64,000 bases of DNA from Cytophagales bacterium (GCA_004292855.1 RDXN01000049.1:21760-85759); one strand, 5' to 3'; positions 3,402-62,860 are shown, counted from the first letter of the stretch. Notes: generated by a model not told the origin, from the letters alone. Program-made: numbers and translations.

Positions 3402-3685
3402 GATTTTAAAAGCGGTATAGGAACGGGCTTACTCAAAACGACATAAAAAAAGCTGACCGTATAGCGGCCAGCCTTTCTGATAGTTGAATACAACCTGAAT
3501 TATAGCAATAACCAGAGAATTATTTGTATAAAATTGATTAATGTAATCCAGATTTCCAAATTTTTAATCGAAACTTATTGAACAACTACCGATAAGTTAG
3601 CCTGAAAAGGACGTACTTAATTGATAGTCAGTTTCTTTTACCGTGTAGAAAATATAATACAAACACGCAAACAAGCCTTGTATTA

Positions 3686-3784
3686 CACCCTGCCAGTGGT
3701 CGACAGACCCTGGCAGGGGTTTCTGACTAGCGAGCGAGTACCCACGGACACCCCTGCCAGGGTCTGTCGACCACTGGCAGGGTG
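3686..3784. repeat. perfect 35-bp inverted repeat, 29-nt spacer (CACCCTGCCAGTGGTCGACAGACCCTGGCAGGGGT / reverse complement)
   Basis: read directly; arm2 is the exact reverse complement of arm1; each arm is itself near-palindromic around GTCGAC. Confidence 0.9.
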
Positions 3785-3793
3785 TTGGGCAGG

Positions 3794-6611: not shown

Positions 6612-6706
6612 TTTTTTTTGTCATTCCGACGAAGGAGGAATCTTGTACTCCTCCAACGCTCTAGTTAGTCTGACTTTAAGATTCCTCCTTCGTCGGAATG
6701 ACAAAA
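6612..6706. repeat. REP/MITE-like element, variant copy 2 (GTCATTCCGACGAAGGAGGAATCTT stem)
   Basis: both arms carry matching substitutions relative to copy 1. Confidence 0.85.
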
Positions 6707-6711
6707 ACAGT

Positions 6712-10526: not shown

Positions 10527-11663
10527 TTGCGATCCATTATGAAAAAATTAGCGTACATAGATGCCTTGCGCGGGCTGGCGATCCTGGGCGTAGTGATGGT
10601 CCACACCAATCAGTACGGTCATTTGAACTTACCGTGGGGCATTGAGAAAATCGTTTGGAAAGGAGGGCGTGGAGTTCAATTGTTCTTTCTGGCAAGTGCA
10701 TTTACCCTGTTTTTGTCGTACGGTAATCGGCTGGCGAAGGAGACAAGGCCGGTACGAAACTTCTTTATCCGACGCTATTTTCGCATTGCACCCATGTACT
10801 ATTTAGGGGTGCTTTACTACCTGTTCCAGGATGGGTTTGGCCCTCGCTATTGGCTGGGCGACGAACCAGGCATCACAGGGGTCAACGTTTTATCGAACTT
10901 CCTGTTTGTGAACGGTTTTAACCCGTATTGGTTTAGCAGCATTGTGCATGGAGGGTGGTCTATCGCGGTCGAGATGTTGTTTTACGCGCTGGTGCCGTTT
11001 CTGTTTTCGCGTATGAAGAACCCTCGGCAAGTGTTAGTATTTTTTGGACTATCGCTGGGGATTAGATTGGGGCTTCAACTGTTGTTTGAAACATACCCGC
11101 TCATTGCGCACGCCAAACTGTGGGAGGAATACCTGTCGCTGTATTTTCCGGCGCAACTCCCCGTATTCGCGCTGGGGATTCTGCTCTATTTCGTCGTTCG
11201 TGATGAACCGGCCCTACTCCGGCGCGTGTCGGGCAAATGGTTACTGCTGGCTAGTGTCGTTTTGTTAGCTCTGCTTGTCAACGGCGACCGGCTGGCGTTG
11301 CCCAATTTTGTGTCTCTTATTCTACCCGACCACGTTTTGTTCGGGGTCGCCTTTTTTCTGCTCGCCTTAGGCCTAAGTCGCTACCCGTGGCCGTTACTCG
11401 TGAACCCGGTCACGACGCATCTCGGCAAGATCAGTTTCAGCCTGTATCTGGTCCATTTTGGGGTCTTGTACTGGCTCGAACGATTCAACCTGACTGACTA
11501 TTTCTATAACGCTACCTTGGACTACGGCCTCCGACTCGTATTGGTGCTGTTGCTCGGTGGGTTGCTCTCCACGGCTTTCTATCACTTTGTCGAAGTACCT
11601 GGGCAAAGGTTAGGGAGCCGGTTGATTAAGCGGCTGGAGCGAAAAGAGGTAGTGGCAGTTTAG
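10527..11663 (+). CDS. acyltransferase family 3 (OatA-like) membrane protein
   Basis: N-term YIDALRGLAILGVVMVH signature, about 10 TM helices. Confidence 0.8.
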   Translation: MRSIMKKLAYIDALRGLAILGVVMVHTNQYGHLNLPWGIEKIVWKGGRGVQLFFLASAFTLFLSYGNRLAKETRPVRNFFIRRYFRIAPMYYLGVLYYLFQDGFGPRYWLGDEPGITGVNVLSNFLFVNGFNPYWFSSIVHGGWSIAVEMLFYALVPFLFSRMKNPRQVLVFFGLSLGIRLGLQLLFETYPLIAHAKLWEEYLSLYFPAQLPVFALGILLYFVVRDEPALLRRVSGKWLLLASVVLLALLVNGDRLALPNFVSLILPDHVLFGVAFFLLALGLSRYPWPLLVNPVTTHLGKISFSLYLVHFGVLYWLERFNLTDYFYNATLDYGLRLVLVLLLGGLLSTAFYHFVEVPGQRLGSRLIKRLERKEVVAV

Positions 11664-11827
11664 CCCCATCGGGGCGGCATGTTAATAGAAAACAAACGGT
11701 TTATTTGCAGTTAAAGCCCCATCGGGGCGGTATGTCCAGAGGTCGCACAATAACATATCGCCCCGATGGGGCTTTGGTGCGCGTTGTTGAGCCGTTTTCT
11801 ATTGACATGCCGCCCCGATGGGGCTAA
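11661..11827. repeat. nested palindromic repeat block (4 copies of GCCCCATCGGGGCG core), bidirectional terminator candidate
   Basis: outer arms 11661-11702 / 11790-11827 and inner arms 11713-11736 / 11752-11776 are reverse complements; block overlaps the stop codons of both convergent genes. Confidence 0.8.
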
Positions 11828-12774
11828 ACCGCGTGGCCAATGCGCTCTTTTAGTTCTTTCAGGCGGGTGCGTTGCATGACAAACTCGGTTTTGCCGTCGG
11901 TCAGGCGGACGATGTATTTGTCGTTTTCCCAGAACGAATAGTTTTTCAAATACGCCAAATTGAGCAGCACCGAACGGTTGATTCGATAGAATTGCGCGGG
12001 ATTGAGTTCGGCTTCGAGTTCGCTCAGGGTTTTGCGGAGTTGAACGGTACGGCCCGCCGTGTAGGCCAAATAGTTCTTGTTCTCTACTTCAATGTACCAA
12101 ATGTCCGTGACGGGCACGAGGGTTTCGCCTTCGTTGTCGGTAGCCTCTACGTGTGTTGGATACAGCGGGACAGGGCCGGACGGTGTTTCTGCTGAGGTTA
12201 CAGGTTTGCGGGCGTCGAGATTGTTTTTGAGGGCAGCTAGTTGGCGTTCCTGATAATCCTTGTAATCGAGAAAGAGGTTGACGTTCACGAATCCGTAGCC
12301 CACAATCAGGAACGGCAGGAAATAGTTGGCGAACATCGATCCTGTAAAGAAATATGAGGGAAAATACGAGTCCCACGAGTAGTTGGGGTAGAACACGGCG
12401 AGGTAGCGGAGGGTATTTGTGATGGGGCCAAACACCAGAATACACACGCAAAAAATGGGCAAAAACAGCAACTCGTATCGTACAACGGCCCCCAACGTTG
12501 GCTGGATCGAGCGGATATTCAGCACGCGCAAAAACCAGAGCGTGAGCTGCACAAAGATGAAGACGGAGAGCAGCTCGAACAGGTAGTAATACCCGAACAG
12601 CATTTTGAAATAATGCCACACGTTGCCCTGCAACAAGGGGGCGAAATCGCTGCCTTCGCTACGCTGGAGGGTCATGAGTTGGTAGAGGAAAATACCAACA
12701 AGCGTGAACAGAAGAAAGCGTTTCCACTGGCGTTTTGTGCGGAAGGTAAGCGGGATGGGCGGGGCCTCGGTCAT
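11824..12774 (-). CDS. membrane-anchored LytTR-family DNA-binding protein (one-component)
   Basis: N-terminal ~200 aa of TM helices, C-terminal LytTR domain (IWYIEVENKNYLAYTAGRTVQLRKTLSELEAEL...FYRINRSVLLNLAYL). Confidence 0.75.
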   Translation of the reverse strand: MTEAPPIPLTFRTKRQWKRFLLFTLVGIFLYQLMTLQRSEGSDFAPLLQGNVWHYFKMLFGYYYLFELLSVFIFVQLTLWFLRVLNIRSIQPTLGAVVRYELLFLPIFCVCILVFGPITNTLRYLAVFYPNYSWDSYFPSYFFTGSMFANYFLPFLIVGYGFVNVNLFLDYKDYQERQLAALKNNLDARKPVTSAETPSGPVPLYPTHVEATDNEGETLVPVTDIWYIEVENKNYLAYTAGRTVQLRKTLSELEAELNPAQFYRINRSVLLNLAYLKNYSFWENDKYIVRLTDGKTEFVMQRTRLKELKERIGHAV

Positions 12775-16167: not shown

Positions 16168-16279
16168 TAACCGTTGAAGCCAACGGCAATGGATAAAAAG
16201 TCCCTGCGGGACTGCGCTGATCTAGTTTTGCAGTCCCGCAGGGACTTTCCACATATTGCCGTTGACTTCAGTCAACGGT
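16168..16279. terminator. triple-hairpin element; central perfect 19-bp stem followed (minus-strand RNA) by UUUUUAU
   Basis: AAAGTCCCTGCGGGACTGC / GCAGTCCCGCAGGGACTTT at 16196-16247, flanked by CCGTTGAAGCCAACGG and CCGTTGACTTCAGTCAACGG hairpins. Confidence 0.6.
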
Positions 16280-17250: not shown

Positions 17251-17357
17251 ATTGAGTGATTGAGCGAATGACGGTCCGCCGTCGCGGTGATTGAGTGAAC
17301 CATCCGGCAGACACTCAATCACCGCGACGGCGGACCGTCAATCGCTCAATCACTCAT
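17251..17357. repeat. 45-bp inverted repeat (one mismatch), 15-nt loop, between rbsA and rbsC
   Basis: TGAGTGATTGAGCGAATGACGGTCCGCCGTCGCGGTGATTGAGTG / CACTCAATCACCGCGACGGCGGACCGTCAATCGCTCAATCACTCA; right arm overlaps the last codons of rbsA. Confidence 0.9.
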
Positions 17358-18872: not shown

Positions 18873-18879
18873 AGTTTTA

Positions 18880-19002
18880 AACCACAGAGTTCGCGGAGTT
18901 TTTTGTCATCCCGACGCAGGAGGGATCTATTCTGTTTAGAGCCAAGTTTAGTGTAGGCAAGCTAGATCCCTCCTGCGTCGGATGACAAAAAACTCTGTGG
19001 TT
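18880..19002. repeat. REP/MITE-like element copy 3, extended form with AACCACAGAGTT flanks
   Basis: AACCACAGAGTT...TTTTGTCATCCCGACGCAGGAGGGATCTA ... TAGATCCCTCCTGCGTCGGATGACAAAAAACTCTGTGGTT. Confidence 0.9.
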
Positions 19003-19618
19003 AAAAAACTTGTATCGGAATCACACTCAACTCACCGACTCGCAAATGCGCCCGATTCAGTTCCACTGCCCCGACAAACCTGATTTTCCGACCGGGTTTG
19101 GCATCGCTCCGCAATCCCGGCACCACGCGCTTGCGGATGATGTCGTTCAACTCAGCAGCCACACTGTTGAGGTCGGCGGTGTTGGAGAATTCGGTGATCT
19201 GAATCAAGCCCGACGCATCGCGGGCGGCATTGCTGTAGATGTACTCGGTTGCCAGTCGGGCAGTTGCGCCAGTGGTTAGTTGCACGGTAACGTCGGTCTC
19301 GCCAACCGTCGATACCACGCCCTCGCCCTTCACCAGGAAGTATCGGATGTTACCAATGCCCAGCGCGTGGGCGTGAGCGTCGAACGCCTTATTTTTATCG
19401 GTTTTCAGTTGCGCCAATAAGCTCGACAACTCCACTGCCCGCTCTGCACCCGTTGGCAAAAGTTTATTGGTCCAGAACGTTTCGGCGTAGCGAGCCGGGT
19501 CGAATTTGCCCAATGCGCCAGCCGCCCGCACTTCGCTTAGAGGCCGCAAATACACCGAATTATAGCCAATCAACCCAACCAGAGCCAGCCCAATACCGTA
19601 CTTCATTCCTTTGTTCAT
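19001..19618 (-). CDS. DUF2291-like periplasmic lipoprotein (ABC-sugar-transporter-associated)
   Basis: start MNKGMKYGIGLALVGLIGYN; start codon overlaps the binding-protein stop (ATGA). Confidence 0.55.
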   Translation of the reverse strand: MNKGMKYGIGLALVGLIGYNSVYLRPLSEVRAAGALGKFDPARYAETFWTNKLLPTGAERAVELSSLLAQLKTDKNKAFDAHAHALGIGNIRYFLVKGEGVVSTVGETDVTVQLTTGATARLATEYIYSNAARDASGLIQITEFSNTADLNSVAAELNDIIRKRVVPGLRSDAKPGRKIRFVGAVELNRAHLRVGELSVIPIQVF

Positions 19619-23449: not shown

Positions 23450-23476
23450 CGGCGGACCGTGCGGATGACGCGGACA

Positions 23477-23570
23477 TTTTTTGTCATCCCGACGCAGGAG
23501 GGATCTACTTCCTTGACGCTCAAATTGAATGTAGGCAAGCTAGATCCCTCCTGCGTCGGGATGACAAAAA
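23477..23570. repeat. REP/MITE-like element copy 4
   Basis: canonical arms; preceded by GGAACCGCAACGGCGGACCGTGCGGATG. Confidence 0.9.
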
Positions 23571-23571
23571 G

Positions 23572-24525
23572 TCATCCGCGATCTAATAATTCCAGTGCCA
23601 CCCGTTCAATGCCCGTTTCGGATAACCCGTAATGGGCGAAAATCTCCAGTTGCGAACCCGTAACGGTGTATTCGTCGGGGATGCCCATGATGCGGAAGCG
23701 GTTCCGAAAGCCATTTTGCAACAGAAACGACGCACACCCCTCCCCCAAGCCACCATACACGCTGTGTTCCTCGACCGTGACGATTGGGCATCCATCAGCG
23801 GCCACCATCGCCAGCAAATCATAGTCGAGCGGCTTGATCGTGTGCATACTCACCACCCTTGCCCGGATGCCCTGCTCGGTCTCCAACCGACGAGCCGCCT
23901 GCAAAGCCGGATAGACCGTTTCGCCGGTTGCAATGAGCGTCAGATCCTCGCCTTCGCGCACCACCCGACCTTTGCCAAACGCAAATTCGCGGTTAGTTTC
24001 GGAGAGCAACGGCATGGTTTTCTTGCCGAAGCGCAGGTATACGGGGGTGTTCATTTGAGCCGCCAGCCGAACGGCCTGCTCGGTCTCGAAATTGTCGGCG
24101 GGGGCCACGATAGTCAGGTTGTGAACGGCACGAAGAGCTGCCAAATCGTGCAGGCTGTGGTGGGTTGAACCCAACGCGCCGTAGCTGACGCCCGCGCTGA
24201 TACCCACGAGCCGGACCGGATTGTTGGAGTAACAGACATCGGTTTTGATCTGCTCGAACGAACGGGCCGTCAGGAAACACGCGGGCGATACCGCAAACAC
24301 GTTTTTCCCCGCCGACGCCAGGCCAGCCGCTACGCCCACCAGATTCTGTTCGGCAATACCGATTTCGACGATCTGCTTCGGAAATCGCTGCCCAAACGGG
24401 ACGAGTTTGCCCGACCCCCGCGAGTCGCTCGTGACAACGAGCAGGTTTCGGTCGGTTTCGGCCAGGGTTTGGAGCGTGGCCGAGAATATGTCGAGGTTAG
24501 CTTTTTCCATATGTTTTTCAACCAC
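23572..24525 (-). CDS. transketolase, C-terminal (pyrimidine-binding) subunit
   Basis: 317 aa; transketolase pyrimidine/C-terminal domain motifs (IGIAEQN, GSTHHS). Confidence 0.9.
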   Translation of the reverse strand: MVEKHMEKANLDIFSATLQTLAETDRNLLVVTSDSRGSGKLVPFGQRFPKQIVEIGIAEQNLVGVAAGLASAGKNVFAVSPACFLTARSFEQIKTDVCYSNNPVRLVGISAGVSYGALGSTHHSLHDLAALRAVHNLTIVAPADNFETEQAVRLAAQMNTPVYLRFGKKTMPLLSETNREFAFGKGRVVREGEDLTLIATGETVYPALQAARRLETEQGIRARVVSMHTIKPLDYDLLAMVAADGCPIVTVEEHSVYGGLGEGCASFLLQNGFRNRFRIMGIPDEYTVTGSQLEIFAHYGLSETGIERVALELLDRG

Positions 24526-24528
24526 AGT

Positions 24529-24622
24529 TTTTTTGTCATCCCGACGCAGGAGGGATCTACTCGGTTAGTGTTCAAGTCGGGGGTAAGCAAAGTAGATCCC
24601 TCCTGCGTCGGGATGACAAAAT
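24529..24622. repeat. REP/MITE-like element copy 5 (AACCACAG / CTCTGTGGTT flanks)
   Basis: canonical arms. Confidence 0.9.
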
Positions 24623-24631
24623 ACTCTGTGG

Positions 24632-25666
24632 TTAATCGTTTAACTCCAGTTTTGCAAAGAAATCGTTGAACATCAGGCCCGTATCCAACTGTGTGTATAC
24701 CCGAATCGGTCGCCCTTTGTGGTTGTGGGCGTACACCCCAGCCGCGTTGATGCGCGGGGCCTGCCGAACCACATACGTACTCGACGAAGGGTCGGCCTCG
24801 AACGACGATTGCAGGGCCGTGAGCAACACCAGCGGACTATCGCCCAAAATGTACGTTTCACCAATGTTCAAAAACGACTGAATCCGGGTCATCAGGCTCT
24901 CCAGCGTTCCGGCCAGATACGCCCCCGTTTTGCCACGCGGCTTCACCTTCGTGAGCAGTTGGGCATACGAAATCAGGCACTGCCGGTACGCGTTTCGGGG
25001 AATCTGCCACAACGCCACCGCCGACCGATTGAACACCGCCCGTGCAGCCGCCTGATCAATATTCAGGTTGTATTCGACCTCGGTATACCCCGGTGGGGGC
25101 GTGGCCAACTCAGTATATTCAGGACCGCCGATCCAGATAAGGGTCAGTTTATCAGCTATTTGCGGATTGGTCAATACCGCCGAAGCGATTTCGGTAAGTC
25201 CAGCCCCGCAGACCACATAAAGCGGTAGTTTGGTATCGGTCCGCAAAGCTTCCTGAATAATGAAGTTGACGGCCTCGTTTTTTACGGGCGTGCTGTCGTT
25301 CACCATTGCCGTGTTCGACCCGGCAAAAACCGGAATCGGTTTGGTCACGTTCATGATACTCAGCACCTCTCGCGCTTTTTTGGCAGCATTGTCGGCCTGC
25401 GTGGTGGAGCGGTCGAAGCCATCGCCGACGCGCAGGTGCGACCCGATTATGCCCCGCACCTCCACCGACGGCGACATCAGCAAATGCGCCAACTGAAACA
25501 GTCCGTCGGGGTCGCCACTGAAGTCGTTATCCACGATCACCCGCATCCGAGGTTGCACCATTGCCAGACCAGTGGGTTGGGCAACGGCCCCAAACGATGC
25601 CAACCAGATGATGGAACTTAGCCAAAAGACCAGTTTAGGAGCTTGTTCGATGGTCTGTTTTGTCAT
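24632..25666 (-). CDS. inosine-uridine-preferring nucleoside hydrolase family protein, probably secreted
   Basis: VIVDNDFSGDPDG aspartate cluster; N-terminal hydrophobic signal; start ATG lies inside the terminus of repeat copy 6 (ATGACAAAA = MTK). Alternative start at MRVIV is possible. Confidence 0.65.
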   Translation of the reverse strand: MTKQTIEQAPKLVFWLSSIIWLASFGAVAQPTGLAMVQPRMRVIVDNDFSGDPDGLFQLAHLLMSPSVEVRGIIGSHLRVGDGFDRSTTQADNAAKKAREVLSIMNVTKPIPVFAGSNTAMVNDSTPVKNEAVNFIIQEALRTDTKLPLYVVCGAGLTEIASAVLTNPQIADKLTLIWIGGPEYTELATPPPGYTEVEYNLNIDQAAARAVFNRSAVALWQIPRNAYRQCLISYAQLLTKVKPRGKTGAYLAGTLESLMTRIQSFLNIGETYILGDSPLVLLTALQSSFEADPSSSTYVVRQAPRINAAGVYAHNHKGRPIRVYTQLDTGLMFNDFFAKLELND

Positions 25667-25750
25667 CCCGAAGCATGAGGGATCTACTCCGCTAACGCTC
25701 AAGTTGAGAGTGGACAAGCTAGATCCCTCCTGCGTCGGGATGACAAAAAA
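25657..25750. repeat. REP/MITE-like element copy 6 (left arm degenerate: GAAGCATGAGGG)
   Basis: read directly. Confidence 0.85.
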
Positions 25751-25773: not shown

Positions 25774-26598
25774 TCATTCTTTCGCTCTTTCACCCAACTC
25801 CTCCAACGCCTGTTGATACTGATCGTAACTAGGCACGCCGTGATGCCATTTCAGTTGATTTTCCATGAAACTCACGCCCTTGCCTTTCACCGTGTGGGCA
25901 ATCACCAAACTTGGCTTCCCTGTTGCAAACGGCAGCGCATCGAACGCTTCTTGCAGGGCCGTGAAGTCGTGTCCATCCACGTGCCGGACCGCCCAACCGA
26001 ACGCTTCAAACTTCTGGTCGAGCGGGTCGGTGCTGCATACGTCGGCGGTGGGGCCGGTAATTTGCAGGGTGTTCTTGTCGACAATGGCGCAAAGGTTGTC
26101 GAGCTTGTAGTGCGACGCCAAGAGGGCCGCTTCCCAGTTAGAACCTTCGGGTAGTTCGCCGTCGCCCATGAGCGTGAACACGCGGTAAGCGCGATCATCC
26201 AATTTAGCCGCGAGAGCCGTTCCCACGCTTAACGACAGCCAGTGCCCCAGCGAACCGGTGTTTTGCTCCACGCCATACACTTTGCGCGTGGGATGCCCAA
26301 TGTAGTGGGAGTTGTACCGGCAAAGTGTTTGCAAGTCAGTTTCCGGGAAAAAGCCCAGGTCGGCCAGTACCACATACAGGGCCTCGACCGTGTGGCCTTT
26401 GCTCTGAATATACCGGTCGCGGTCGGGCGAGGTAAAGGTGTCGGGACCAACGTTCAACACGGTATTATAGAGCACGTTCAGGATGTCGATGCACGACAGA
26501 CTACCGCCCGTATGCCCAGCCCCTGCCCCATAAATGTATTGGAGGATGTTCCGGCGGTATTGCGTCGATTTCTGGGCTAGTTCGCTAACGGTTAGCAT
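25774..26598 (-). CDS. transketolase, N-terminal (TPP-binding) subunit
   Basis: 274 aa; GHTGGSLS, GDGELPEGSNWEA TPP-binding motifs. Confidence 0.9.
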   Translation of the reverse strand: MLTVSELAQKSTQYRRNILQYIYGAGAGHTGGSLSCIDILNVLYNTVLNVGPDTFTSPDRDRYIQSKGHTVEALYVVLADLGFFPETDLQTLCRYNSHYIGHPTRKVYGVEQNTGSLGHWLSLSVGTALAAKLDDRAYRVFTLMGDGELPEGSNWEAALLASHYKLDNLCAIVDKNTLQITGPTADVCSTDPLDQKFEAFGWAVRHVDGHDFTALQEAFDALPFATGKPSLVIAHTVKGKGVSFMENQLKWHHGVPSYDQYQQALEELGERAKE

Positions 26599-27490
26599 GT
26601 TCTGTATGGGAGGGCTTTATGAAACCCTGTTGAGCCAGCCACTCGGCAAATCGCTCGATCCACCCATCCGAGGGCAAATTCTGTTTATTCATGCCGAACC
26701 CATGCCCCCCTTTTGCGTACAAATGGAGTTCCGTAGGTTTCTTAGCCGCAAGCCATGTGTTGTACAAGTCCACGCTGTGTGGAGCCAGATTCAGTTGATC
26801 GTCGGAGGCACAAACCAGGAACATCGGGGGCGCATCGGTTGGCAAGTTGCCCTGCATGGCTGCCGGGAAAAAAGCGTAAATGGGGGCCGCAAACGCTGGT
26901 TTATTGTCGGCATTGTAGCCAAAAACAGCCCCCGCTGTCACTGTCCCCCCCGCCGAAAAACCCATAATTCCGATTTTGTTTGGATCAACGCCATACGTAG
27001 CCGCGTGTTTGCGGACGTAGGCGATAGCCGCGCGACCATCGGCCATCGACAGGGGAATTGTGGCCTTGTTTTCGGCGTCCCACTCCTGTTTGCGCGGCCC
27101 GTCGATGCCCGCCATCATGTCGGCAAACGGGTCGTCGGTGTTGATGCGGGCCGTCCGGTATTTTAACACAAACGCCGTGACACCCTTTTTTGCCAGACAT
27201 TTCGCCACGTCATTACCCTCACTATCAATGGACAGAAAGTGAAACCCTCCGCCCGGACAAATCACCACCGACGTCCCCGTTGCCAGAGCCGGATCAGCCG
27301 GGAACACCGTCAGCGTTGGGTTGACGACGTTATAAACCGTCATCAGGTTAATGGCGTTTTTGTTGTTCTTTTTCTCGGTCCAGTTCCAGGTTTCCGAGCC
27401 GGGTGCGGCCCCGTCGTAGATTCGCACCTCGGTTTGTTGCGCCTGAGCCAGCCCAGCCAGCAATACGCCAAGTAGTAGTAGTCGTGTTTT
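26585..27490 (-). CDS. secreted alpha/beta-hydrolase esterase
   Basis: signal peptide; GFSAGG nucleophile elbow, HGFG C-terminal His. Confidence 0.7.
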   Translation of the reverse strand, partial: KTRLLLLGVLLAGLAQAQQTEVRIYDGAAPGSETWNWTEKKNNKNAINLMTVYNVVNPTLTVFPADPALATGTSVVICPGGGFHFLSIDSEGNDVAKCLAKKGVTAFVLKYRTARINTDDPFADMMAGIDGPRKQEWDAENKATIPLSMADGRAAIAYVRKHAATYGVDPNKIGIMGFSAGGTVTAGAVFGYNADNKPAFAAPIYAFFPAAMQGNLPTDAPPMFLVCASDDQLNLAPHSVDLYNTWLAAKKPTELHLYAKGGHGFGMNKQNLPSDGWIERFAEWLAQQGFIKPSHTEHANR

Positions 27491-27505
27491 CATATTGGTA
27501 TTCAT

Positions 27506-37801: not shown

Positions 37802-37879
37802 GTTTTTGTCATTCCGAGGTACGAGGAATCTCACAATCAGGCAACTGTAAGATTCCTCGTACCTCGGAATGACAAAAAC
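37802..37879. repeat. REP/MITE-like element, short variant copy 7 (GTCATTCCGAGGTACGAGGAATCT)
   Basis: perfect 29-bp arms with matching substitutions. Confidence 0.85.
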
Positions 37880-41623: not shown

Positions 41624-41730
41624 TTTCAGGGTAATGTAGTATTGAAAAATCTTGTCGTATGTACTTAGCGTTGGGTGCATTTCACTCTTGTGTTTTGCTC
41701 AACCGTCGCCACTTAAAGCAACCTATATTG

Positions 41731-41824
41731 GCCTTACGGCCATGCCGGAAAGTATCCGGCACTACAAAAGTCGCCCCTTCACGTAATGCCGGATATTTTC
41801 CGGCATGGCCGTAAGGCCAACAAC
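41731..41824. repeat. family-B inverted repeat pair (about 38-bp arms, 17-nt loop)
   Basis: ATTGGCCTTACGGCCATGCCGGAAAGTATCCGGCACTAC / GTAATGCCGGATATTTTCCGGCATGGCCGTAAGGCCAAC. Confidence 0.85.
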
Positions 41825-44404: not shown

Positions 44405-44454
44405 AATCTAGTATTGAATTTGATCAAATCTCTGTTTAGGCGCATTTTTTGTCA

Positions 44455-44567
44455 TCCCGAAGTTTTTTTGTCATTCCGAGGAACGAGGAATCTACTTCGT
44501 TAACCCTCGATTGTGTATTAACGAAGTAGATTCCTCGTTCCTCGGAATGACAAAAACTCACTTTCCA
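44455..44567. repeat. REP/MITE-like element copy 8, with an extra upstream half-copy (TTTTTGTCATCCCGAAG)
   Basis: GTCATTCCGAGGAACGAGGAATCTACTTCGTTA / TAACGAAGTAGATTCCTCGTTCCTCGGAATGAC. Confidence 0.85.
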
Positions 44568-48750: not shown

Positions 48751-48795
48751 ATGGAAGTCGGTTTGGGAGGCAACGATTAGTTATTTGACCTTTTA

Positions 48796-48870
48796 CCCCC
48801 CGCCCTAAAGGGTGCCTTGCTTGCGCCAGAGTGGGCTTACGCGCCAGCAGGCCCCCTTTAGGGCGGGGGG
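48796..48870. terminator. GC-rich 17-bp-stem hairpin (CCCCCCGCCCTAAAGGG / CCCTTTAGGGCGGGGGG) downstream of susD
   Basis: read directly. Confidence 0.5.
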
Positions 48871-48877
48871 TGACATT

Positions 48878-55052: not shown

Positions 55053-55147
55053 TTTTTTGTCATTCCGAGGAACGAGGAATCTCAAATTATCCTTGCTATC
55101 TAGTTGGTAACCAGTAAGATTCCTCGTTCCTCGGAATGACAAAAAAA
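55053..55147. repeat. REP/MITE-like element copy 9 (GTCATTCCGAGGAACGAGGAATCT variant)
   Basis: read directly. Confidence 0.85.
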
Positions 55148-58708: not shown

Positions 58709-59599
58709 TCACGAACGATTCAGACCGAGCATCCGAATGGCGTTCTCCTTCAAAATTAAGGGTTTTACCTCGTCGCGGAACCCGGCAGTCTCAAAATCTT
58801 TCATCCAGCGGTCGGGCGTGATGAGCGGAAAATCCGTTCCAAACAGCATCCGGCTTTTGAGTTGGGTGTTGGCATATTGCACCAATTGGGGCGGAAAATA
58901 CTTCGGCGACCACCCGCTGAGGTCGATATACACGTTGGGTTTGTGCATGGCTACCGACAGGGCTTCGTCCTGCCACGGCCACGAGGGGTGGGCAATGATG
59001 ATCGGCGAGTCGGGGAAGGCAATGGCCACATCGTCGAGGTGCATGGGGTTGGAGTATTCGAGCCGGAGACCGCCCCCACCCCGCACCCCCGACCCAAAGC
59101 CCGAGTGCCCTGAATGGAACAACATGGGCAGTTTGTGCTCGGCAATGGCCTCGTAAACGTGCCACGCCATGCGGTCGTTGGGGTAAAAACCCTGCACCGT
59201 CGGGTGAAATTTGAAGCCCTTTATACCAAACTCTTCGATCAGTCGGCGGGCTTCGCGGGCACCCATCCGGCCCTTGTGGGGGTCGATACTGCCGAACGGG
59301 ATCATCACGTCGGGGTTGTTGGCGGCCCCCTCGGCTACTTCCTCGTTCGGAATCCGCCGACGCCCTAACTCGTATTCGGCGTCAATCGTGAACATCACGA
59401 AGGCCATGTTCCGCTCGCGGTAATAATCGGCGGTTTCCTGAATCGTAGGGCGTTTGTCGGACTTAAAATACCTGGCAAACGCCACGTCGAATTCGGGCCG
59501 GTAATCGTCGTGCGGCTGGCAACACGACACCTCGGCATGGGTATGGACGTCGATAGCGACGATGGTTTCGATGTTTATCATAGTTGGGGATAGGAACAC
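58709..59599 (-). CDS. amidohydrolase-2 family protein (candidate sugar-acid lactonase)
   Basis: metal-binding HxH (AIDVHTH) and downstream His/Asp motifs of the amidohydrolase_2 fold. Confidence 0.7.
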   Translation of the reverse strand: MFLSPTMINIETIVAIDVHTHAEVSCCQPHDDYRPEFDVAFARYFKSDKRPTIQETADYYRERNMAFVMFTIDAEYELGRRRIPNEEVAEGAANNPDVMIPFGSIDPHKGRMGAREARRLIEEFGIKGFKFHPTVQGFYPNDRMAWHVYEAIAEHKLPMLFHSGHSGFGSGVRGGGGLRLEYSNPMHLDDVAIAFPDSPIIIAHPSWPWQDEALSVAMHKPNVYIDLSGWSPKYFPPQLVQYANTQLKSRMLFGTDFPLITPDRWMKDFETAGFRDEVKPLILKENAIRMLGLNRS

Positions 59600-59697
59600 G
59601 GATTGAACAGATTGAACGGATGAAAACGGATTTTATAATCGTGAACAATGATAAAATCCGTTTTCATCTGTTCGATCCGTTCAATCCGTGTTCCTAT
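59590..59697. repeat. 47-bp imperfect inverted repeat, 14-nt loop, with GATTGAAC tandem units
   Basis: ATAGGAACACGGATTGAACAGATTGAACGGATGAAAACGGATTTTAT / ATAAAATCCGTTTTCATCTGTTCGATCCGTTCAATCCGTGTTCCTAT. Confidence 0.85.
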
Positions 59698-59702
59698 CAT
59701 TT

Positions 59703-60821: not shown

Positions 60822-60838
60822 GCTTGTATCATTAACGT

Positions 60839-60935
60839 TTTTTTGTCATCCCGACGAAGGAGGGATCTACTTTGCTTACTCATACCTTGTGCATGCCAGA
60901 GCTAGATCCCTCCTTCGTCGGGATGACAAAAAACT
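60839..60935. repeat. REP/MITE-like element copy 10 (GAAGG/CCTTC stem variant)
   Basis: read directly. Confidence 0.9.
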
Positions 60936-62738: not shown

Positions 62739-62756
62739 CGGCGGACCGTGCGGATG

Positions 62757-62850
62757 GTTTTGTCATCCCGACGAAGGAGGGATCTAGCTAGCTGATAGTC
62801 AACCTGATTGCAAATGGAGTAGATCCCTCCTTCGTCGGGATGACAAAAAA
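62757..62850. repeat. REP/MITE-like element copy 11 (preceded by GGAACCGCAACGGCGGACCGTGCGGATG)
   Basis: read directly. Confidence 0.9.
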
Positions 62851-62860
62851 ACCGCATTCA

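Follow-up and report, generated by a model that had tools for sequence, protein, structure and literature searches.

Among the repetitive extragenic palindromic (REP) sequences of bacteria, the CGTC superfamily described by Di Nocera et al. (2013, PMC3733652) comprises the families CGTC-1 to CGTC-4, including dRS3 and the Rickettsia repeats RPE-4/6, and occurs in several phyla, Bacteroidetes among them, without associated transposase genes. Its members carry the tag CGTC (often TGTC or CCTC), stems of 8-9 bp that open with A-T and T-A, a loop of 4-5 nucleotides (nt) and a 3-nt unpaired 3' tail of consensus CCA, and they lie mostly as head-to-head homo- and heterodimers with spacers of 20-100 nt near the 3' ends of genes, between co-oriented or convergent genes; the same survey, which discarded repeats with more than one mismatch, already described subfamilies with alternative complementary stem residues, and an activity at the RNA level has been reported for REP dimers (PMC3733652). 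A member of this superfamily, the Neisseria repeat NTS (CGTCATTCCCGCGMAVGCGGGAATCYRG, which contains dRS3), is bound by SsnA, a single-domain GIY-YIG protein of 94 amino acids (aa) that recognizes NTS only as single-stranded DNA (ssDNA), cleaves a few nt upstream of the motif and does not depend for cleavage on which bases form the loop; such motifs typically bracket ssn genes, in an NTS-ssnA-NTS architecture (Chenal et al. 2025, PMC11893778). Here we analyze a repeat that occurs eleven times in a 64-kb stretch of DNA (hereafter the window; GCA_004292855.1, RDXN01000049.1:21760-85759, one strand) from a metagenome-assembled genome (MAG) of the Cytophagales (Spirosomataceae), and we argue that it probably belongs to the Ssn-related hairpin repeats tagged CGTC/TGTC, as a Bacteroidota form whose modules make up head-to-head homodimers.

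A degenerate arm pattern run over the window, with shuffled sequence as the baseline, returned 21 arms where 0.01 were expected; together with one arm bearing a deletion these make up 11 elements, each laid out as a T-run, an arm of 23-25 nt, a spacer of ~33 nt, the inverted arm and an A-run, and starting at positions 2370, 6612, 18899, 23477, 24528, 25658, 37803, 44463, 55053, 60838 and 62758. The initial annotation of the window, which flagged the second of these copies, had read the differences between repeat subfamilies as compensatory substitutions that keep a long arm-to-arm stem perfect, and the variants that it quoted are indeed present: the canonical arm GTCATCCCGACGCAGGAGGGATCTA in copies 1, 3, 4, 5 and 6, GACGAAGG/CCTTCGTC in copies 10 and 11, GTCATTCCGACGAAGGAGGAATCTT with its complement in copy 2 (6620-6702), and GTCATTCCGAGG(T/A)ACGAGGAATCT with its complement in copies 7-9. 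Its assertion of complete arm complementarity applies to every named variant and to nine of the eleven copies, in which pairing is perfect over 29-39 nt, but fails for copies 3 and 6. In copy 3 (18905-18986) the right arm has lost one G (GGGATGAC to GGATGAC), and in copy 6 (25662-25744) the left arm, GAAGCATGA, differs from the right arm at two positions, leaving 93% complementarity. Folded as a single strand, the element forms a long hairpin of -34 kcal/mol (z = -11), far beyond chance.

The structure that is constrained, however, is a small hairpin within each arm and not the long stem. The arm, or module, has the consensus T-GTC-A-T-Y-C-C-G-A-N-G-N-A-N'-G-A-G-G-R-A-T-C-T-N (23-25 nt) and consists of the tag TGTC, a 5-bp stem (A4-T22, T5-A21, C6-G20, C7-G19, C8-G18), a tandem G.A/A.G step in which G9 faces A17 and A10 faces G16, one closing pair (C11-G15), the loop G12-N13-A14 and a short tail. 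Subfamilies differ by the change of C6/G20 to T6/A20, by that of C11/G15 to G11/C15, or at N13 (C, A or T), so that each of these differences either has its compensating partner in the same arm or affects only the loop base N13. In copy 6 the A11 and T15 of the left arm break the long stem and pair with each other.

The same distinction emerges from a larger set of at least 119 loci, obtained by a scan that took one genome per species. Its hosts are Flavobacterium, Chryseobacterium, Chitinophagaceae, Hymenobacter, Spirosoma, Fibrella and Pedobacter within the Bacteroidota and, outside that phylum, Chloroflexota, Armatimonadota, Terriglobales and contigs of Crocosphaera watsonii. In a survey of dimers in this set, anchored on one exact arm and leaving the partner arm free of the search pattern, 22 elements had perfect arms, 73 had imperfect arms and 33 had no recognizable partner for the anchored arm; imperfect arms in 73 of the 95 paired elements are the frequent mismatches that the initial annotation had named as evidence against its long stem. 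Of the differences between arms, about 55% come as double changes after which the hairpin of the arm itself is still Watson-Crick. Among 37 imperfect partner arms of 23 nt, 29 double changes at paired positions preserved Watson-Crick pairing within the arm, two led to G.T and one broke the pair, while the single changes included 10 that broke a pair and 5 that led to G.T, with 9 more on N13. For the 37 distinct partner arms 94.6% of cells were paired, as against 77.5% in shuffles, double-change cells numbered 39 against 11.8, and the covariation score was 0.515 against 0.195, a value reached in none of 500 shuffles; controls in which the pairing was slid out of register had only 15-61% of cells paired. 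The covariation analysis that had been proposed for all genomic copies thus argues strongly for the small arm hairpin and not for the long stem, and the idea of a hairpin under constraint survives with a change of hairpin.

A structural search for GTCA, a 5-bp stem, GA, 1-3 bp, a loop of 3-4 nt, GA and the returning stem found 241 modules, compared with 0-2 in shuffled sequence. Their loops are nearly always of the form G..A (GAA in 146, GCA in 52 and GTA in 17), with a 3-nt GNA loop in 219 of the 241 and a 4-nt GNNA loop in some others; in the longer variants the inner mini-stem is extended by one or two pairs. The unpaired G9, A10, G12, A14, G16 and A17 are each at least 90% invariant. Among 1,326 stem pairs there were 8 G.T and 8 A.C, that is, no excess of wobble, and since G.T is no commoner than A.C the stems behave like DNA palindromes and unlike typical RNA helices. 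Covariation therefore sorts the positions of the module into those that are structural (the stem pairs), free (N13) and sequence-specific (the tag, the G.A pairs and the loop G and A), a classification that may be useful to those seeking new site-specific ssDNA nucleases.

The long stems in the window are perfect because a dimer is made of two arms of one variant. This holds for at least nine of the 11 dimers, a count that 200,000 random pairings of the 22 arms never reached, and to that extent the dimers behave as units, in line with the initial annotation; the identity of the two arms may be kept by unit copying, by templated correction or by selection. The spacers keep their length (33 nt between the TA...TA boundaries in most copies) and are recognizably homologous yet diverged, with 63% identity in the main subfamily over a shuffled baseline of 47 +/- 2%, whereas the arms of the same subfamily are 97.6% identical. 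This disparity implies that the arms are constrained or homogenized and that the dimers are not simply young copies, in keeping with the earlier judgment that the element is not decaying neutrally. In other genomes most arm pairs are imperfect or of mixed variants, and the mixed-variant dimers keep the hairpin of each arm; the dimers of the larger set are arranged head-to-head in 66 cases, tail-to-tail in 8 and in tandem in 11. Two identical small hairpins in a REP dimer can thus give rise to a perfect long palindrome that is not necessarily evidence of selection on the long stem, which calls for caution in genome scans. In Crocosphaera watsonii WH 8501 (locus L033, 3652-3726) two direct module copies lie 52 nt apart with identical 5' flanks, a tandem arrangement unlike the inverted dimers of other loci.

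When the element is set beside the CGTC REPs, the shared features are the tag, with the qualifications given below the A-T/T-A start of the stem and the short tail, the predominance of head-to-head pairs, the occurrence of homo- and heterodimers, spacers within 20-100 nt, the position at gene 3' ends between co-oriented or convergent genes, the subfamilies with complementary stem changes, the lack of association with a REP-associated tyrosine transposase (RAYT) and the spread over several phyla. An oriented hairpin repeat with a non-palindromic 5' flank HGTC is what we find: outside the window 203 of 220 modules carry TGTC and 11 carry CGTC (214 of 220 in all), and in the window all 21 of 21 carry TGTC. 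The stem opens with A-T followed by T-A in 216-217 of 221 modules. Of its 8 positions two are G.A/A.G instead of Watson-Crick, a number of mismatches above the single one that the CGTC survey allowed; the loop, mostly of 3 nt, is shorter than their 4-5 nt, and the tail is C-T-N (CTC in 71, CTT in 39 and CTG in 35 modules, with CTA in 15 in the window) where theirs is CCA. A further parallel comes from translation, in that the peptides VIPAKAGI and ..RFRGND of intragenic CGTC-1 repeats (PMC3733652) resemble VIPRNEES and RFLVPRND from the arms described here, which implies the same GTCATTCC...GGAATGAC frame.

With NTS the element shares the HGTC tag followed by AT, a stem of about 8 positions (ATTCC.../...GGAAT), a short loop of free identity, ATC and a tail after the stem, the orientation, the presence of many copies around genes and, in relatives of this genome, the bracketing of small (94-100 aa) single-domain GIY-YIG genes by the repeats. 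It departs from NTS in the replacement of two inner stem pairs by tandem G.A/A.G, in the GNA triloop, in its Bacteroidota host and in the tight head-to-head homodimers flanked by T- and A-runs. The compensatory substitutions to which the initial annotation drew attention are accordingly real, within the arm, and belong to an element class already on record: the phenomenon has been described for REPs, and systems of this class entered the literature in 2013 and 2025. The novelty lies in the hairpin chemistry of this repeat family, its host range and the link to GIY-YIG genes in Bacteroidota.

That link came from sequence and profile searches of every open reading frame (ORF) in all loci. Among the module loci, GIY-YIG genes appeared only where modules bracket the gene: a Hymenobacter MAG (L063) has the order dimer, GIY-YIG gene, dimer, and Flavobacterium orientale (L021) has a single module, the gene and an inverted module, with arms identical to the canonical arm of the window; both proteins match PF01541 at 55-59 bits. 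A crude regular expression for the GIY-YIG motif gave only false matches, so that profile searches were needed, and when ORFs in the neighborhood of modules were clustered with a minimum length of 100 aa no recurrent family emerged, the gene having been missed because this length cut-off was too high and because the gene is rare among the loci. Further loci were then fetched through the protein, independently of the repeat. Hymenobacter rubripertinctus (L211/L212) has dimers on both sides of its GIY-YIG gene; a metagenomic lineage (L207-L210) has the gene preceded by a variant module (TGTCATTTCGACCGTAGGGAGAAAAC) in tandem arrays with a period of ~139 nt; Siphonobacter (L213) has modules on both sides; and on a plasmid of Spirosoma oryzicola (L214) a T-run-flanked homodimer lies upstream of the gene and a collapsed GTCATCC...GGATGAC palindrome downstream. 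Modules thus bracket GIY-YIG genes of ~100 aa at six independent Bacteroidota loci. In the metagenomic lineage (~530-1000, 1461 onward) an MmeI-like restriction-modification gene follows the GIY-YIG gene.

The GIY-YIG proteins are 39-53% identical to those of Azospirillum, Sinorhizobium and Sphingobium. In Azospirillum lipoferum the homolog has canonical CGTCATCCCCGCGAAGGCGGGGATCCAG dimers, arranged head-to-head, on both sides, and in Novosphingobium it is bracketed by CGTC-tagged hairpins of another type, two cases that tie the protein family to the classical CGTC/NTS repeats. On the A. lipoferum plasmid AZO_p3 (L215, 230-740) the GIY-YIG gene and its flanking CGTC-type dimers lie between sufB and sufC, and it looks as though the whole repeat-gene-repeat unit was inserted into a conserved operon.

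By analogy with SsnA, the arm hairpin in single-stranded form, for example GTCATCCCGACGCAGGAGGGATC, would most likely be the recognition site of a small GIY-YIG nuclease, and the module TTTTGTCATCCCGACGCAGGAGGGATCTA would be a candidate substrate for the Spirosoma or Hymenobacter protein; the T-run occupies the place where SsnA-type enzymes would be expected to cut. The compensatory substitutions would then have two causes, namely that each arm must keep its own hairpin and that both arms of a dimer are copied from the same variant, with the perfect long stem as a by-product. We hold this working model, in which the repeat is an ssDNA hairpin target of a GIY-YIG nuclease whose gene such repeats bracket, to be probably correct, together with the assignment of the element to the Ssn-related repeats. 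A GIY-YIG nuclease, if this genome encodes one, may bind or cut the hairpins and spread or maintain the repeats, and we infer that the repeats may in turn affect incoming DNA or the surrounding operons.

A few observations weigh against this interpretation. Profile searches found no GIY-YIG gene in the 64-kb window or in the 21-kb locus of a sister strain; the bracketed loci number no more than six, two of which come from a set chosen for holding a module; and the presumed kinship of the Bacteroidota proteins with SsnA/cd10448 is based on size, domain and the homologs in Azospirillum, Sphingobium and Sinorhizobium. All five arm variants of the window fail the published search pattern for Ssn-related motifs (SRM), HGTCWYN(0-2)YYVSBRHN(0-5)WNVSBRGN(0-2)RNCYNB, which the NTS control passes; the arms fail because of the A of the tandem G.A, and the two SRM matches that the window does contain are unrelated sites. 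With nearest-neighbor DNA parameters, moreover, lone arms fold at only -1.9 to -2.7 kcal/mol (z ~ -0.1 to -0.6), and in a full-length single strand the long hairpin would be predicted to outcompete the arm hairpins. Folding parameters of this kind give no credit to sheared G.A pairs or GNA triloops.

Were the interpretation as a nuclease target to hold, the partnership of Ssn nuclease and hairpin repeat would extend to Bacteroidota, with modules also in Chloroflexota, Armatimonadota, Terriglobales and Crocosphaera contigs, and since the SRM pattern misses hairpins with tandem G.A and a GNA triloop, current motif censuses are probably incomplete. A bolder proposal, which we offer tentatively and consider unlikely, is that the module-ssn-module arrangement of F. 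orientale and Siphonobacter is an autonomous mobile unit driven by a GIY-YIG ssDNA nuclease, of which the dimers in the window would be internally deleted, non-autonomous derivatives. If true, this would amount to a class of transposable element whose enzyme is a GIY-YIG ssDNA nuclease and neither HUH nor DDE, the first arm would serve as template for renewing the second, explaining the perfect homodimers, and the tandem-G.A/GNA hairpin would represent a new natural specificity of ssDNA cleavage.

The genomic setting of the element resembles that of the described repeats. All 11 copies are intergenic and lie 1-23 nt past the stop codon of the upstream gene, ten between co-oriented genes, one between convergent genes and none between divergent ones; several lie within apparent operons, as between the genes of an extracytoplasmic function (ECF) sigma factor and its FecR partner or between split transketolase subunits. 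Lone modules of the larger set were co-oriented in 19 cases, convergent in 15 and divergent in 3, and showed no clear bias toward the sense strand (12 versus 7). In Spirosoma aerophilum, S. taeanense and Nibrella viscosa the orthologous operon has short intergenic regions without the element, and in these three species the intergenic DNA is too diverged to place the exact insertion site. A sister MAG (98-99% identity) carries copies 3-6 at the same sites, a single spacer substitution apart, including the deletion in copy 3 and the A-T pair in copy 6. Absent from the three relatives and fixed in the sister strain, the elements thus come and go between species and are stable at the level of the strain.

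It might be argued that the long hairpin is itself under selection, whether as RNA in operon transcripts (an mRNA stabilizer or a processing signal) or as a DNA cruciform, with substitutions compensated to keep its stem. Such a view, which we regard as rather doubtful, would draw on the very stable fold and the perfect pairing of nine of the eleven copies, on their placement just past stop codons, mostly between co-oriented genes and at times within apparent operons, on the spacer kept at ~33 nt and on the RNA-level activity reported for REP dimers (PMC3733652); yet the changes in copy 6 break the long stem while pairing inside the arm, most dimers elsewhere are imperfect and the mixed-variant ones keep each arm's hairpin, the invariant unpaired G, A and GNA positions are left unexplained, G.T is as rare as A.C, unlike in typical RNA helices, and the lone modules have no clear sense bias. 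Alternatively, the arms could owe their match to mutational upkeep without selection, in which replication template switching (quasipalindrome correction) or gene conversion would use one arm to correct the other. Template-switch mutagenesis of quasipalindromes is established, the stems are strictly Watson-Crick without wobble excess, and subfamilies whose spacers are still homologous differ by coordinated changes at four positions, two in each arm, changes that templated copying would presumably bring about more easily than stepwise mutation. We nevertheless think this an improbable account of the whole, for it explains neither the conservation of non-paired positions and tag across phyla nor the persistence of heterodimers in many genomes and the link to the GIY-YIG gene, and copies 3 and 6 have gone without correction from a time before the sister strain diverged.

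Two mobile-element classes have a similar outline. A REPIN is an inverted REP doublet with a less conserved spacer, a choice between a long hairpin and a 'clover' fold, and compensatory changes (PMC3116915); a RAYT, which is a Y1 HUH tyrosine transposase, mobilizes it in trans. The element has the same anatomy, with inverted doublet, spacer and hairpin all found here; in common with the REPIN-RAYT system (Bertels and Rainey 2011) and with the bacterial interspersed mosaic elements (BIMEs) of E. coli it has a less conserved spacer of fixed length, an extragenic position also within operons, the two competing folds and the compensatory changes, and RAYT genes are present in Spirosoma, Rudanella, Larkinella and Hymenobacter. 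That it is a REPIN is nonetheless very improbable: the tag is TGTC and not GT[AG]G, the gene associated with it encodes a GIY-YIG nuclease and not an HUH transposase, the RAYTs of a Spirosoma MAG, S. soli and H. metallilatus (L003, L201 and L202) are flanked by GTAC- or GTAG-tagged REPs of their own, 80 metagenomic RAYT loci (273 kb) contained one module only, which was not adjacent to the gene, and CGTC-type REPs have been reported without association with a transposase gene (PMC3733652). On the strength of those separate GTAC/GTAG REPs and of that single module a RAYT partner was rejected. An ordinary miniature inverted-repeat transposable element (MITE), that is, an internally deleted insertion sequence with terminal inverted repeats mobilized by a DDE transposase, would likewise be short, intergenic, inverted at its ends and present or absent according to species, but we consider this highly unlikely, given that none of the 11 copies shows a visible direct target-site duplication (the flanks tend to be inverted-complementary), that each 'terminal repeat' is itself a covarying hairpin, that no transposase recurs near modules in the at least 119 loci, and that lone modules and mixed dimers are common. 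Least credible of all is intrinsic termination of transcription in both directions, which a strong, G+C-containing hairpin just past stop codons would fit; on both strands, however, the T's come before the hairpin and the A's after it, with no U-tract following, so that it is not a canonical terminator, copies stand between genes normally transcribed together (a sigma/anti-sigma pair, transketolase subunits), and a terminator scan called none of the elements. Integron attC sites (R''/R' cores RYYYAAC...GTTRRRY, extrahelical bases, promoterless cassettes) were also tried as a candidate and rejected, as the ends here are GTCAT...ATGAC with perfect pairing and the flanking genes are ordinary operon genes whose synteny is kept in relatives.

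Database and literature searches added no further relative of the repeat. The elements had no match in Rfam at the gathering threshold, and at permissive thresholds only sub-threshold microRNA precursor models, generic noise for long hairpins; a literature search with the arm sequences returned unrelated primer matches only, and the supplements of Quentin et al. 2018 contain no REP of the GTCAT type. As for carriage of modules on mobile DNA, one provirus-like contig and no phage record were found, and the only plasmids were the megaplasmids of Spirosoma oryzicola.

The individual copies may be described as follows. Copy 2 (6612-6707) opens with eight T's (6612-6619), the last of which completes the tag TGTC, and continues with the left arm GTCATTCCGACGAAGGAGGAATCTT on the plus strand (6620-6644; stem ATTCC/GGAAT, tandem G.A, a C-G pair, a GAA loop and the tail CTT), a 33-nt spacer homologous to those of the other copies yet diverged (6645-6677), the right arm AAGATTCCTCCTTCGTCGGAATGAC on the minus strand (6678-6702), which is the left-arm variant inverted and completes the head-to-head homodimer, and five A's (6703-6707). 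The canonical variant (CCC/GGG stem, C-GCA-G) is represented by copy 1 (2370-2461), with perfect arms and the only one between convergent genes; by copy 3 (18899-18992), whose right arm is one G short and which is nested within a AACCACAGAG/CTCTGTGGTT palindrome; by copy 4 (23477-23570), with perfect arms, between the gene for the C-terminal transketolase subunit and a Sde182-like gene, a site that is empty in the three related genomes; by copy 5 (24528-24621), also perfect, downstream of an extra nucleoside hydrolase gene; and by copy 6 (25658-25750), in which a canonical right arm faces the A11/T15 left arm, paired within itself, with two arm-to-arm mismatches. Copy 7 (37803-37878) is of the TCC/GGA variant with G-GTA-C and has a short spacer, of 20 nt between 23-nt arms. 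Copies 8 (44463-44556) and 9 (55053-55147) share the TCC/GGA variant with G-GAA-C; the stem of the former runs into the spacer to give perfect arms of 39 nt, and the latter lies between the ECF sigma factor gene and its FecR-type partner. Copies 10 (60838-60933) and 11 (62758-62851), both with perfect arms, are of the CCC/GGG variant with C-GAA-G.

Some copies are surrounded by further repeats. A truncated arm remnant, TTTTTTGTCATCCCGAAG, on the plus strand (44445-44462) abuts copy 8 and suggests an older broken copy or a nested insertion. Palindromes of AACCACAG(AG)/CTCTGTGGTT enclose copies 3 and 5 (18875-19007 and 24520-24633), and a GGCGGACCGT-type repeat adjoins copies 4 and 11 (23451-23475 and 62740-62757) and also makes up a 45-nt inverted repeat at 17253-17356. 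The flanks of several copies are inverted-complementary and not direct repeats. The intergenic DNA of the window holds at least six other families of palindromic repeats, at 3685-3785, 11655-11832, 16175-16270, 41728-41820 (plus 29226), 48795-48871 and 59589-59698; the one at 41728-41820, a REP doublet tagged GTAG/GTAA, belongs to the type that lies beside RAYT genes in related genomes, and another of the window's families is a cluster of four CCCCATCGGGGC hairpins. The RAYT genes of Spirosoma and Hymenobacter that are bracketed by their own GTAC-/GTAG-tagged REPINs lie at 4878-5700 in L003, 2900-3690 in L201 and 2660-3860 in L202.

Around the transketolase operon, a nucleoside hydrolase gene (24632-25657), bracketed by copies 5 and 6, splits the two transketolase subunit genes; it too is missing from the orthologous operon in S. 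aerophilum, S. taeanense and N. viscosa, as if it had been inserted together with, or between, the repeats. A repeat of the L003 type occupies the transketolase intergenic site in N. viscosa (L205, 3417-3500), which indicates that the same operon gaps are colonized by different repeat families across species. Between the fucose isomerase and transketolase N-subunit genes of the window there is an ORF of 306 aa (26585-27505) that is absent from the sister MAG (L206), where these two genes overlap directly.

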